Source: Nanobdellota archaeon (lineage in GTDB: Archaea > Nanobdellota > Nanobdellia > Woesearchaeales > UBA583). From it: a stretch of DNA of 54,750 bases. Each line of letters starts with the position of its first letter. Within the stretch, counting starts at the first letter, position 1. Of the stretch, positions 42,538 through 54,750 are shown piece after piece. The notes beneath the pieces were generated by a model that worked only from the letters and a program-made list of their open reading frames with translations, did no database searches and was not told the origin of the DNA. The position numbers were made by a program, and so were the translations under genes. The stretch spans positions 1-54,750 of the forward strand of contig JBMCRE010000006.1 in assembly GCA_048625195.1 (NCBI GenBank). Direction: 5' to 3'.

Positions 42538-43401
42538 TTATTTTTTTAAAATGTTATTTTTAGGAGCATTACAAAACATATCGTAACAACATCCAACACC
42601 TTTATCTTTCATATTTTTAGATTTATCTATCATTGCTCTTTGAAATTTTATTCCTGCAAATCTGTTTATATGTCTAAATGTTTCTTCTTTTGAAACACCT
42701 TTTTCTTCTAATAATTTAAAATAAGCATTAAAGTTTGCATCTTCATAAGGGCCTCTACATCCAACACATCCATAACCTTCCATAGGACACATAACAGAAC
42801 AATTTCCAAATGTAATAGGTCCTAAACATTCTTTTCCTTCTTCCAATAAACAACCTCTTTCTCTTAAATTACATTCGTAACATATGGGTTTTTGGTAAAT
42901 TTTAAATTCTTTTCCTAAAAGTTCTGATTTAATAAATTGTAAAAATTCTATTTTATCCATAGGACATCCTCGAATGTAACCATCTACTGTTACAAATTCA
43001 TCAATTGGTTTTGGGTCTAAACTTTTTAATTCTTTTAATTCATCAGAATTATAAACTGTTAATTCAATATTTTTATTGTTTATAAAGTTTTTAATTGCAG
43101 GAACACATCCATCTGTTGCACATGAACCAATTGCAATTAATTTGTTTGTTTTATTTCTATAATTTTTTAATTCTTCTAAATCTTTTTCATTGACGACTAC
43201 TCCTTCTAAAAATATAATATCAAAATCATTATCCATAATATTTTTTTCGTTTGTAACTGGAAATGCTTTTAAATCAATTGCTCCTAATATATCAAATAAT
43301 TCTTTTTGATATATAATATTTAAATGACATCCCATACAACCTGTTATACCAAAAATACCTACTTTTAATTTTTTTTCTGGAACTCTTTGTGGTAGTGTCA
43401 T
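42538..43401 (-). CDS. group 3b [NiFe] hydrogenase small (delta) subunit
   Basis: TGCMGC, FLEG, AIGSCATDG, GCP, ICYEC, CLGPIT, CVGCRG; probable start ATG 43401. Confidence 0.88.
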   Translation of the reverse strand: MTLPQRVPEKKLKVGIFGITGCMGCHLNIIYQKELFDILGAIDLKAFPVTNEKNIMDNDFDIIFLEGVVVNEKDLEELKNYRNKTNKLIAIGSCATDGCVPAIKNFINNKNIELTVYNSDELKELKSLDPKPIDEFVTVDGYIRGCPMDKIEFLQFIKSELLGKEFKIYQKPICYECNLRERGCLLEEGKECLGPITFGNCSVMCPMEGYGCVGCRGPYEDANFNAYFKLLEEKGVSKEETFRHINRFAGIKFQRAMIDKSKNMKDKGVGCCYDMFCNAPKNNILKK

Positions 43402-43402
43402 T

Positions 43403-44254
43403 TTAATCAGTATACTCCTCCATTTCATCATATCTAAAGACTGGTCCATCTGTACAACAATATTTATCATTAATCATACAATGTCCACATCTACCTACTC
43501 CGCATTTCATATGTCTCTCTTCACTAAAAAATATTTGATCTTTATTAAATCCATTTTCTAATAATTTTTGACATGTCATTTTAATCATAATGGGTGGACC
43601 ACAGACTATTACTATTTTATTTTCATTAGATTTTATTGATGTACTATCATTTAATAAATCAGTTACAAAACCTTTTTGATATGGTTGTGTATTTTCATCT
43701 TCACTTAATGCAATATTTAAATTCATTGATTTATCTGTCCATTCTTTAAAATCTTTTTGAAATAAAATATCTTCTTTTGTTCTAAATCCAAAAAAAATAT
43801 CTACATTATAAAATTTTCCTCTATTATTTTTAATATATTCTATAACACCTCTAACTGGAGCAGTTCCACAACCTCCACCAATAATAATGATGTTGTTATC
43901 GTAAAAATGTTGCATATTATATCCATTACCATATGGACCTCTAATCCCTAAAACTTCACCTTTTTTTAAACCACATATATGTGAAGATACATTTCCTACT
44001 GCTCTTACTGAAATTTCAAAGTATTTATCATTATAAGAGCAAATAGAAATTGGTGCTTCACCTATACCTAAAATGCTTGCTTGTATAAATTGTGCAGGAT
44101 TATGTTCGATTGGAACATTAAATCTTAACAAATATTCATCTGAAGTTTGTTTTGTTATTTCGTCTACTTTATAAAATTTTACATCATTTTCACTTAATAA
44201 TATATTCTTTGATAAACTTTTCTTTTCATCTATTAAAAAATTTATATCACTCAT
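43403..44254 (-). CDS. sulfhydrogenase gamma subunit (FAD/NAD(P)-binding, 2Fe-2S)
   Basis: GEAPISI, RGPYGNG, GGGCGTAP, CGPPIM, MKCGVGRCGHC..CTDGP; ATGA overlap with beta gene. Confidence 0.9.
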   Translation of the reverse strand: MSDINFLIDEKKSLSKNILLSENDVKFYKVDEITKQTSDEYLLRFNVPIEHNPAQFIQASILGIGEAPISICSYNDKYFEISVRAVGNVSSHICGLKKGEVLGIRGPYGNGYNMQHFYDNNIIIIGGGCGTAPVRGVIEYIKNNRGKFYNVDIFFGFRTKEDILFQKDFKEWTDKSMNLNIALSEDENTQPYQKGFVTDLLNDSTSIKSNENKIVIVCGPPIMIKMTCQKLLENGFNKDQIFFSEERHMKCGVGRCGHCMINDKYCCTDGPVFRYDEMEEYTD

Positions 44255-45234
44255 TTTGTTTCTACCTCTAATTTGTTTATTAGTTCTATCCAATCAATTT
44301 TTGTAGGACATCCTCTAATACATCTACCACATCCTGTACACATTACCATATTAGTTTTCTTCTTGAAATAATCAAGTTTATGATAAAATCTATGTTTAAA
44401 TCTTTTTAATCTTTCATCTCTAAAAACATTGTTTCCAGCAACTAATGTAAAATCTCTATACATACATGAATCCCATTTTGAAATTCTTTTTCCAGACACT
44501 AAATCTAAATTAACTTCATCTTCAATATCAAAACATAAACAAGTAGGACATAAACTTGTACAATTTCCACAACTTAAACATTTTGTTGCTCCTTTTTGCC
44601 AGATATCATCTCTATTGAAATATTTTGCAATATCTATAGTTAATAATTTGTTTTTGCATCTTGGAATTTGAGGAGAGTAGTTTGTATCAGTGTCTAATTT
44701 CATATTATTTACTATTTCTAAACCTTTAAGAGATCCGGTTTTTATATGAAAATATTTTCCTCTATCAAATAAACATAAATCATAATAATTTTCTAAATTC
44801 AAACTATCACAAAAACAATATTCATCAATAGGTTTGTCACACCATAATCCTATTAATAATAAATTTTTTCTTCTTTGTTCATAATTTTCATGTTTTGGGT
44901 TTTGTTTTAAAAATAAAACATCATTTATTCTAAATGAATTTAAATCACATAATCTTAATCCAAATAATACTTTTTTTTCATTATCTTGTGATTTGATTAT
45001 TTGATTATTATTAAATTCAAATAAAATATCTTTTTGTTTTAAAACATGCTTTTTTGCACTATACCAACTAAGACCTTCAAATGTAATATCTTTAGGATTA
45101 TTAAATTCTTCAAGATGAATCCAATTATTTTTATTGGTAGGCGCATAAACTTTTCCAAATTCTTCTAAGTATTTGAGAAATTTATTGATTTTTTTTTTGG
45201 GTAATTTATATCCATTTATATTTTCAAAAGACAT
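44251..45234 (-). CDS. sulfhydrogenase beta subunit (AsrA-like 4Fe-4S protein)
   Basis: GLRLCD, CFC, CLSCGNCTSLCPTCLCF, WDSC, CTGCGRCIRGCP. Confidence 0.9.
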   Translation of the reverse strand: MSFENINGYKLPKKKINKFLKYLEEFGKVYAPTNKNNWIHLEEFNNPKDITFEGLSWYSAKKHVLKQKDILFEFNNNQIIKSQDNEKKVLFGLRLCDLNSFRINDVLFLKQNPKHENYEQRRKNLLLIGLWCDKPIDEYCFCDSLNLENYYDLCLFDRGKYFHIKTGSLKGLEIVNNMKLDTDTNYSPQIPRCKNKLLTIDIAKYFNRDDIWQKGATKCLSCGNCTSLCPTCLCFDIEDEVNLDLVSGKRISKWDSCMYRDFTLVAGNNVFRDERLKRFKHRFYHKLDYFKKKTNMVMCTGCGRCIRGCPTKIDWIELINKLEVETK

Positions 45235-53102: not shown

Positions 53103-53346
53103 AATATAATATATTGTATATTATATATAAATATTTAGTTTTTTTAGTTTTGGATAAAAGTGTCATGTATTTATAAACCATCACTATTTATCATCCAACA
53201 ACTCAAAGATTAAATATAACTATATCATAAATATGAGAATTTGTGACCAATTTGACTGGAGAAGTGCAAAAATACGTAGTTATCCTTGTTATAATCCTCT
53301 AAGAGCTAAAATTTGAACAAAAAAATTATGTTATTTTATTATAAAT

Positions 53347-53748
53347 TTAAGAATTGTTTAAGTGACCAATTTTATTTGGTGCAAATAAATCTAACTCAAA
53401 ATAATTGCATGTTAATTCTTCGTTTTTTTTAATGTTTTTAATAGTAACGGTATATGATTCTTTATAGTTTTCTGACGTTTCTTTTGTGTTTGGATTTGAG
53501 GAATGATTAAAGAATTTAGCATTATCTATACAATAAACGATTCTTTGATCTTTTTTATTTTTATAACCATATTTTATTATATCTTTTTTAATTGGTTCGG
53601 GTAATTGTAATAATTCTTCTTGAGAAAAATTTCTGTCATATCCTTTATGAAACTTCCAAATCTTTTTTCCTTTTGGTATATCTTCTTTTGAAAAAATTCC
53701 TATCCCATGTATTTTACTTTCTTTCAAGTAGGTTTCTATTAACATCAT
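53347..53748 (-). CDS. SET domain protein
   Basis: SKIHGIGIF, FFNHSSNPN, IKKNEELTCNY. Confidence 0.92.
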   Translation of the reverse strand: MMLIETYLKESKIHGIGIFSKEDIPKGKKIWKFHKGYDRNFSQEELLQLPEPIKKDIIKYGYKNKKDQRIVYCIDNAKFFNHSSNPNTKETSENYKESYTVTIKNIKKNEELTCNYFELDLFAPNKIGHLNNS

Positions 53749-53989
53749 ATAATTTATTAAAAGAGAATCTTTTTAAATTTTTCTAAATGTTAGAAAAAAA
53801 AATTGATTAATTTAAAAATCGGATTTTAGTTTATTATGCTTGTTGCTATAAAAATTTGTATTTAATTTAAGAGACAACTTCAAGAAACAAAGTTGTAAGT
53901 GTAAATGTGTGTAGTATCAGGTCTTATCCTTTTCTTTCTTTTATTTTTATTATATCCTTTTTACATTTTAGCTAATAAAAAATTATTTC

Positions 53990-54154
53990 ATTTAAAATCG
54001 GAATTTAGAGAAGTTTTACAACGAAGAGAAAAATTTGGAAAATGCCAAGCTTAGGCATTTCTCTTTAAAATGCTGTTAATTGCTCCGAGCAGATAGGCGA
54101 GAACGCAACGTGGTTGAAGAGCGAAGTGACGAAGAAGTTGATAGTTAAAAATTT
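53990..54154. repeat. long imperfect palindromic element, copy 1 (cassette-site-like)
   Basis: GC-richer than background; shares anchors TTTA[GA]AGAAGTTTT, AAAAATTTGG, TGTTAA, GCAACG, CGAAGA(A)GTT with 54506-54690. Confidence 0.7.
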
Positions 54155-54157
54155 CTT

Positions 54158-54472
54158 TTAGTATATTATGGCTCCAATTATAATAAGTAGATCAATCATT
54201 ATTAATGAACCATACATAATAATAAGCGGTTTTTCTTTATGAATAATGCCATACAATGTCATTATTACAACAATCAACAAATAGGAAATCCAAGTTATTA
54301 ATGAAATACCTGAGGCATCTTTGAAAATCCAAATTTGAATTAATTGAGGCAAGGTTACAATTGGACTAGCAATTCCAGCAATATATGCTAGTTTCTCAAT
54401 AGTATTGTTGAATAAACCTGGTTTTTTCTTATGAAGATGATGCATTGCTTTACTTGTTTGAGCCATAATCAT
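54158..54472 (-). CDS. SemiSWEET / PQ-loop family small transporter
   Basis: LPQLIQIW..KDASGISLITW..LYGI; 3 TM. Confidence 0.85.
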   Translation of the reverse strand: MIMAQTSKAMHHLHKKKPGLFNNTIEKLAYIAGIASPIVTLPQLIQIWIFKDASGISLITWISYLLIVVIMTLYGIIHKEKPLIIMYGSLIMIDLLIIIGAIIY

Positions 54473-54505
54473 TATTAAAGAAATGTTATATATAAAACTT
54501 TTGTA

Positions 54506-54690
54506 AAATTTTTAACTATCAATTGTAATTAACAGAACACTTTAAAGAAGTTTTTCATAATGAAATGGATAAAAATTTGGGAGAAAACTACAAGTTTCTG
54601 GAATCTCTAAATCCTTGTTAAATGAGGTGAGGAGCGAGAGCGACGAAAGTGCAACGGTCGGCGAATCCGAAACCCGAAGAGTTAGGTTTA
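54506..54690. repeat. long imperfect palindromic element, copy 2 (cassette-site-like)
   Basis: Diverged direct repeat of 53990-54154; core AATTAAC...GTTAAAT. Confidence 0.7.
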
Positions 54691-54750
54691 TTTTTTATTT
54701 AATAATTTCAAGACCAATGCAATTGTAATATAAATTACTACACATCCTCC

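Follow-up and report, generated by a model that had tools for sequence, protein, structure and literature searches.

A SemiSWEET gene cassette in the likely tail of an integron-like array of a Woesearchaeales archaeon

The SemiSWEET-like gene near the end of the 54,750-nucleotide stretch analysed here (the window; positions 1 to 54,750 of contig JBMCRE010000006.1 from a Nanobdellota archaeon of the Woesearchaeales) is probably a cassette in the decayed tail of an integron-like array, whose members are joined at a GTT triplet and are likely served by a XerA-like tyrosine recombinase without the insertion of IntI integrases, and the swapped arms of its two flanking sites probably go back to one rare exchange at the site core. 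Site anatomy, crossover position, the ending of attI-like sites at GTT and the divergent insert-less recombinase at array heads are established here at the level of sequence. As to the mechanism, the recombinase would act on the folded bottom strand of a site, excise cassettes as circles and insert them at attI. The first-pass annotation of this DNA had taken the SemiSWEET gene for the cassette of an integron-like system, and our results support it in this respect.

The SemiSWEET cassette and its flanking sites

The window is the entire contig C6 of a genome of 838 kb (24% G+C, 23 contigs, 87% complete). From a reading of its ORFs it carries archaeal housekeeping genes, e.g. those of a thermosome and a release factor, as well as three genes at 42538-45234 that resemble hydrogenase or sulfhydrogenase subunits, and the SemiSWEET cassette with its sites is confined to the final 800 bases (Table 1). 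A 1435-base contig from run X1 extends beyond position 54750. The 104-aa cassette protein matched SemiSWEET models below their cut-offs (NF037969, E 1.9e-14) and matched no family in Pfam, and family sites were absent at 10 of 10 loci of SemiSWEET relatives, drawn from 9 of the 19 genomes of the genus. A SET-domain gene (PF00856, 53347-53858) immediately follows the degenerate third half-site and may be an old cassette that became fixed where the array ends.

Table 1 Features of the SemiSWEET locus and of the related array ends in the same genome.
Feature	Coordinates	Strand	Remarks
3' end of the upstream cassette's gene	54688..54750	(-)	20 codons and stop, cut by contig end; frame translation
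Upstream site, left arm	54605..54625	(-)	6-base R'' box, AAC, 12-base L'' arm (commonest type in the family)
Upstream site, conserved core	54571..54580	(-)	separates the two sub-hairpins; same 10 bases as in the downstream core
Upstream site, right arm	54525..54554	(-)	L' arm, spacer with 2-base bulge, GTT, 6-base R' box
Outer stem, 5' half	54506..54522	(-)	17-bp repeat, begins 8 bases past GTT
Cassette gene	54158..54472	(-)	104-aa SemiSWEET-like transporter; ORF and NCBIfam model match
Outer stem, 3' half	54138..54154	(-)	
G+C-rich hairpin region	54084..54137	(-)	from outer stem to R''
Downstream site, left arm	54063..54083	(-)	rare L'' type
Downstream site, conserved core	54029..54038	(-)	
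Downstream site, right arm	53988..54017	(-)	common type
Start of a cassette leader widespread in relatives	53876..53999	(-)	decayed, A+T-drifted
Degenerate third half-site	53810..53858	(-)	remnants of core and right arm, upstream of SET-domain gene; below site finder's threshold
Array head	G000:C9:37391-39092 (L002 1321-3022)		tRNA, insert-less recombinase, attI-like site, first cassette, start of the second
Array tail	G000:C5:59740-60520 (L004 7740-8521)		antitoxin/RelE-like cassette, decayed last site, then 505-aa secreted-looking protein

Along the gene strand, a site runs from a 6-base box, AAC, a 12-base arm and hairpin A to the core, which is followed by hairpin B, an 8-base arm, a spacer, GTT and another 6-base box. 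The four arm strings and the 17-bp inverted repeat hugging the gene, as initially described, are all present at their positions, the repeat matching at 17/17 bases. As a special feature of this gene the repeat was ruled out, since it is the ordinary outer stem of the family, which reaches at least 8 bp in 40 of 56 cassettes (median 13). The two direct repeats, first thought to span about 170-185 bp, are indeed related but align well over merely about 105-115 bp, with 81 of 103 aligned bases identical between 54004-54110 and 54541-54656; 0 of 1000 shuffles attain their alignment score. The core AAAAATTTGG is present too, and forms the junction of two sub-hairpins instead of the tip of a hairpin.

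The GTT of the upstream site (54531-54533) is the crossover point of the family, and the R' box after it begins the SemiSWEET cassette; the right arm of this site fits the cassette's own left arm. The R'' box of the downstream site is complementary to the start of the cassette at 5/6 bases, and the crossover triplet of this site (53994-53996) reads TTT in place of GTT, suggesting that the site is probably dead. The decayed leader shares 75% identity over 126 bases with locus L136 (E 3e-15) and has further relatives in L067 and L040. By G+C content, the window sites rank 0 and 3 of 177, among the lowest of the family.

The site family and the position of its crossover

Both sites belong to an attC-like family of this archaeal order, in which 87 of 401 genomes (two of the 87 being unpublished) match the strict right-half pattern, compared to 19 genomes, as counted from the table, for the reversed pattern used as a control. 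The fetched genome regions yielded 179 unique sites, and at least 87 further unique sites were obtained from at least 77 metagenome loci, with none in the reversed controls. The site finder was trained on GTT-type sites and made no use of arm pairing. The scan left out duplicate loci (L005, L006, L014, L015 and L080) and non-array loci (L001, L003, L037, L078 and L079), as well as plasmid relatives from Chryseobacterium and Clostridium tagluense, which were viewed by annotation and one of which adjoins an IS91 transposase. GTT is found in 173 and AAT after the 6-base box in 154 of the 179 sites; the RYYYAAC / GTTRRRY consensus is not followed, GTTRRRY fitting 55 of the 179.

Between such palindromic sites lie tandem gene cassettes, 77 of which were verified (the metagenome part from the matches listed). 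The longest ORF runs along the array in 39 of 56 cassettes, is opposed to it in 13 and absent in 4, and the genes are diverse, including those for restriction and HNH nucleases, methyl- and acetyltransferases, nucleotidyltransferases, regulators and unknowns, with 46 of 51 cassette proteins covered by the Pfam scan. Hairpin B and the outer stem, which lie on either side of the R-L helix, are closed by one and the same AAT/ACT stem base containing an A-C mismatch, and these shared stem bases are candidate binding or second cutting sites.

Neighbouring sites were compared position by position for pairing within and across sites. In the genome set, the six bases after GTT match the R'' box of the next site at 5/6 bases or better in 56 of 75 adjacent pairs, against 5 of 75 natively. 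Arms were scored in pairs lying no more than 3500 bases apart and passing this 5-of-6 test, which 19 of 75 genome and 10 of 31 metagenome pairs failed. The arms pair better natively in 44 of the 56 verified genome pairs, tie in 9 and pair better across sites in 3, the window included. Among the matches listed for the independent metagenome set, 21 of 31 pairs pass, of which 19 pair better natively, 2 tie and none pairs better across sites. The 77 verified pairs combined (metagenome part again from the matches listed) give 63 in favour of native pairing, 11 ties and 3 in favour of pairing across sites, counts that are not independent because these genomes are related and have cassettes in common. 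Outside GTT, cross-site pairing at positions 2-6 amounts to 0.72-0.88, compared to 0.31-0.47 natively, and this complementarity stops at position 7, ending after position 6 in the genome and the metagenome sets alike; inside GTT, the variable positions of both sets pair better natively.

Sites resembling attI, consisting of GTT and six bases that match the first site and lying within 330 bases of the recombinase start, were found in 17 of 24 recombinase-headed arrays against an expectation of 2.1, although that in L105 is in fact a missed attC. They have no core and end at GTT, and the one on contig C9 of the window's own genome is among the 17. Six of them (L068, L072, L095, L125, L139 and L150) carry a short inverted repeat that resembles the L-arm pair and directly precedes a conserved TAAT-N4-GTT; to judge from these repeats, attI might fold too.

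Together, the 77 pairs and the core-less attI-like sites place the crossover at GTT, within the limits of the invariant bases. Crossover at GTT is also what the pertinent section of PMC4792948 describes for integrons. The first-pass annotation had instead proposed a different site-specific mechanism at the palindrome centre, and this proposal was not borne out, as most pairs are better paired natively and the attI-like sites stop at GTT. That the recombinase of the system crosses over at the centre, each cassette carrying the inner halves of both flanking sites, is hardly credible. The window pair does have a specific inner match (see below) and folds better after a centre swap, the core shows high conservation, and chimeric sites occur often, mismatched arms with no more than 9/12 pairs being present in 44 of 179 genome sites and, among the matches listed, in 11 of 87 metagenome sites. 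Against it stand, besides the native pairing of the 63 pairs and the GTT ends of the attI-like sites, the site of the first cassette on C9 in the same genome, whose arms pair natively at 11/12. The window is the sole pair among the 77 with an inner match of at least 10 that exceeds both native values, and with the specific swap in 1 of 77 pairs the centre crossover was rejected as a rule of the family.

Origin of the swapped arms

At the 12 diagnostic positions, the arms of the window sites pair at 8 and 9 within sites and at 10 and 10 across them. The better pairing across sites claimed at first pass thus holds for inner and outer arms, but is specific only for the inner ones: equally good pairing with either inner arm occurs in 1 of 177 other family arms, and none of the 177 attains 12/12 with G-T pairs counted, whereas 39 and 44 of 177 other arms are as good as the outer ones.

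A family site folds into an R stem of 9 bp and an L stem of 12 bp, with a bulge of 2 bases, and two sub-hairpins around the core close the R-L helix. In the circular form of a cassette a 13-bp outer stem forms additionally, and the bottom strand is the more stable one in 97 of 99 intact sites. Comparison of native and recombined folds agreed with the initial expectation for the SemiSWEET cassette: centre-swapped constructs, with about 19-20 base pairs between the arms, gave top-strand DNA energies of -16.1 and -9.5 kcal/mol, compared to -8.2 and -11.7 kcal/mol for GTT-crossover constructs and -7.4 and -8.2 kcal/mol for native sites. Because the centre-swapped sites outfold the native and GTT-crossover ones, a single exchange inside the arms has probably taken place.

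In 16 of the 44 mismatched genome sites both arms fit intact arms of other sites, compared to 25 of 880 in a point-mutation control, indicating an exchange of half-sites at some point between the arms, for which the conserved core is the simplest location. A deletion between two sites would leave one chimera and the insertion of a circle two reciprocal ones, as in the window. The stretch between the L arms, which bounds the one-off exchange, holds two shared blocks of 10 and 9 bases, and the upstream core would be the candidate location. A SemiSWEET circle with its own complete site would thus have entered the neighbouring site via an exchange between the L arms, for which the 10-base core common to both sites is the simplest place, through microhomology recombination or an aberrant recombinase event, and the locus would afterwards have decayed through C-to-T drift with the loss of one GTT. 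Those inner mismatches that remain are top-strand G-T pairs, as expected of C-to-T decay, and from the state of its bases the event looks old and the locus inactive. For IntI1, L-box events are rare (1 of 607 recombinants in the data of PMC4792948 that bear on this point), and such an event would not swap a whole arm. The search for empty sites and circles proposed at first pass gave no exact ones in the contigs of four runs from one study. Cassette-skipping joints were dismissed as empty sites, given that their intervening letters differ or their mismatches are many, and were assigned to other family sites.

The same arrangement could have arisen without a reciprocal insertion if the SemiSWEET cassette was duplicated in tandem and then suffered two separate deletions at the core through replication slippage between sites. 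We regard this as rather improbable: three events would be required instead of two, and the outer arms fit at 10/12, the right arm being one C-to-T change away from a common partner type. What recommends it is that non-reciprocal chimeras are common in the family, that the outer arms are of common types (the 39 and 44 of 177 above) and need no former partnership, and that a 10-base homology would be better explained by slippage than by strand exchange. An artefact, the swap being an assembly chimera at the repeated core, is extremely unlikely. The locus does adjoin a contig end, with related repeats around it, and none of the contigs listed bridges the upstream core, but the downstream site, which is mismatched itself, is covered without differences by contigs from two further samples of the same study (runs X2 and X3; spanning 53308-54424 and 53370-54120), and the fit of the upstream right arm to the rare left arm of the cassette also argues against a chimera.

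An unlikely extension would make core exchange a route in its own right, i.e. a second kind of integron in Woesearchaeota, with insert-less XerA-like recombinases, branched single-strand sites, ordered capture at GTT and a rarer core exchange by the same recombinase. Core exchange would then sit at the second AAT/ACT stem, and this route would shuffle half-sites, delete cassettes and be able to insert one, as in the window.

Array heads, the recombinase and known integrons

We return to the preferred reading, a GTT-joined array with an insert-less recombinase and a single core exchange in its tail. A profile built from the two window sites found relatives at the ends of contigs C9 and C5 of the same genome. 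A tyrosine recombinase or HUH nuclease had been suspected beyond the window, and the former was found at the head of the array on C9, whereas PF01797 (Y1 transposase, HUH/RAYT-REP) was not found in this 87% complete genome. The order on C9 is a tRNA (read as Leu from its sequence), the tyrosine recombinase facing away from the array, the attI-like GTT, a 119-aa cassette gene and its site, and the array head is cut by the contig end. The end of C5 holds two sites around a pair that reads as antitoxin/RelE-like, with no NCBIfam match. The last box of C9 matches the first site of C5 at 5/6 bases, so that the two may be one array; no overlap joining the C6 or C9 end to another contig was found. 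In total, one head and two tails of arrays are present in the genome, the window's array and the recombinase being on different contigs; unless a link is concealed by the assembly, one or both tails are orphan clusters.

Contig ends of this genome show further repeats. A 14-base word occurs in repeats of about 50 bases and two types at seven contig ends (the starts of C8, C10, C13, C15, C18 and C20 and the end of C23) and inside C8 (C8:29190), possibly representing a second cassette or mobile system, and short tandem repeats of 8-9 bases break contigs at ends of C3, C8, C13, C17, C20 and C21.

The best structural-database match of the C9 protein is XerA of P. abyssi (PDB 4A8E, E 6e-42), and the protein aligns to VchIntIA in two pieces. 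The catalytic Lys-to-His distance, counted from alignments, is 63 residues in C9, 66 in P. abyssi XerA and 107 in VchIntIA. It amounts to 58-66 residues in 46 of 46 measurable recombinase rows, the other 7 of 53 rows having no measurable motif distance. Sites are present in the locus in 23 of the 53 rows, upstream and on the opposite strand in 23 of 23, and all 21 of these array-heading relatives that were measured lack the IntI insertion. The array-heading recombinases do not form one clade and are scattered in the tree among rows showing no array; a search with the C9 protein alone gave 2 related loci. Its position suggests that the recombinase is likely linked to the array. With NF040815, the C9 protein scored 213.8 bits (cut-off 220) and a second XerA-like protein on C17 passed with 243.7, which makes the latter, to judge by these scores, the likelier housekeeping enzyme. 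XerA resolves chromosome dimers at one double-stranded site, and what the C9 protein shares with the archaeal XerA/dif system of P. abyssi is the length of its catalytic domain.

With TIGR02249, the IntI model, C9 scored 177 bits against a cut-off of 265, and no protein scored above the cut-off in any of the 36 array-carrying genomes. The array works like an integron, yet its recombinase falls outside IntI. It had been considered at first pass that the sites might be standard attCs beside a typical IntI; the crossover is indeed the standard one, but the recombinase is no typical IntI. That the arrays are ordinary CALINs, attC clusters lacking an integrase, which are mobilised by a genuine IntI supplied in trans or by a different organism, with the XerA-like gene as a bystander, is very unlikely, considering that the recombinase has a fixed divergent placement wherever an array locus includes one (23 of 23), that attI-like sites lie beside it, that no IntI exceeds the cut-off in the 36 genomes and that the sites fit GTTRRRY poorly. 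Such a view can draw on six Woesearchaeales genomes in which 2-12 attC sites occur without an IntI and on the uptake of archaeal attCs by IntI1, both given in the relevant parts of Ghaly et al. 2022 (PMC9668308), and also on the incompleteness of the genomes.

Like integrons (class 1, VchIntIA, PDB 2A3V), the archaeal arrays have an attI-like site from which a tyrosine recombinase diverges, cassettes of one gene in tandem, palindromic sites, a terminal GTT/AAC crossover and a better-folding bottom strand. Unlike them, they have a recombinase without the insertion, which the pertinent passages of PMC4889954 and PMC4792948 describe as specific to IntI. Their sites exchange six free bases and a conserved AAT instead of RRRY and have a 2-base bulge next to the R stem, a branched interior and a conserved core, and their cassettes carry the 13-bp outer stem hugging the gene.

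The attC clusters in Nanoarchaeota that Ghaly et al. describe in the sections concerned (PMC9668308) are a similar case, and some of their Woesearchaeales attCs may belong to the site family of the window. The archaeal IntIs in those sections carry the IntI-specific domain by definition, and no insert-less recombinase at Woesearchaeales attC arrays is named there. According to the corresponding part of Smyshlyaev et al. 2021 (PMC8138268), the insertion is incompletely conserved within an 'integron-like' subgroup of simple tyrosine recombinases and is essential for integron function; the arrays described here differ in that no insert-less member of the subgroup is linked to cassette arrays in that part. 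In the literature outside subscription journals, no description of insert-less recombinases heading such arrays was found.

The ability of integron integrases to work on folded single-stranded sites is ascribed to the IntI insertion, whose presence is required by detection tools. By itself the SemiSWEET locus is a decayed array tail, and the array-head recombinase on C9 is the interesting part; what the window contributes is a mapped crossover point and evidence for the reshuffling of sites at the core. If real, a widespread crossover of the integron type with a plain Xer-like enzyme would escape IntI-based detection tools. Such an insert-less system could account for the integrase-less attC clusters reported in these archaea, and between Xer recombinases and IntI it provides an intermediate that can be put to the test.
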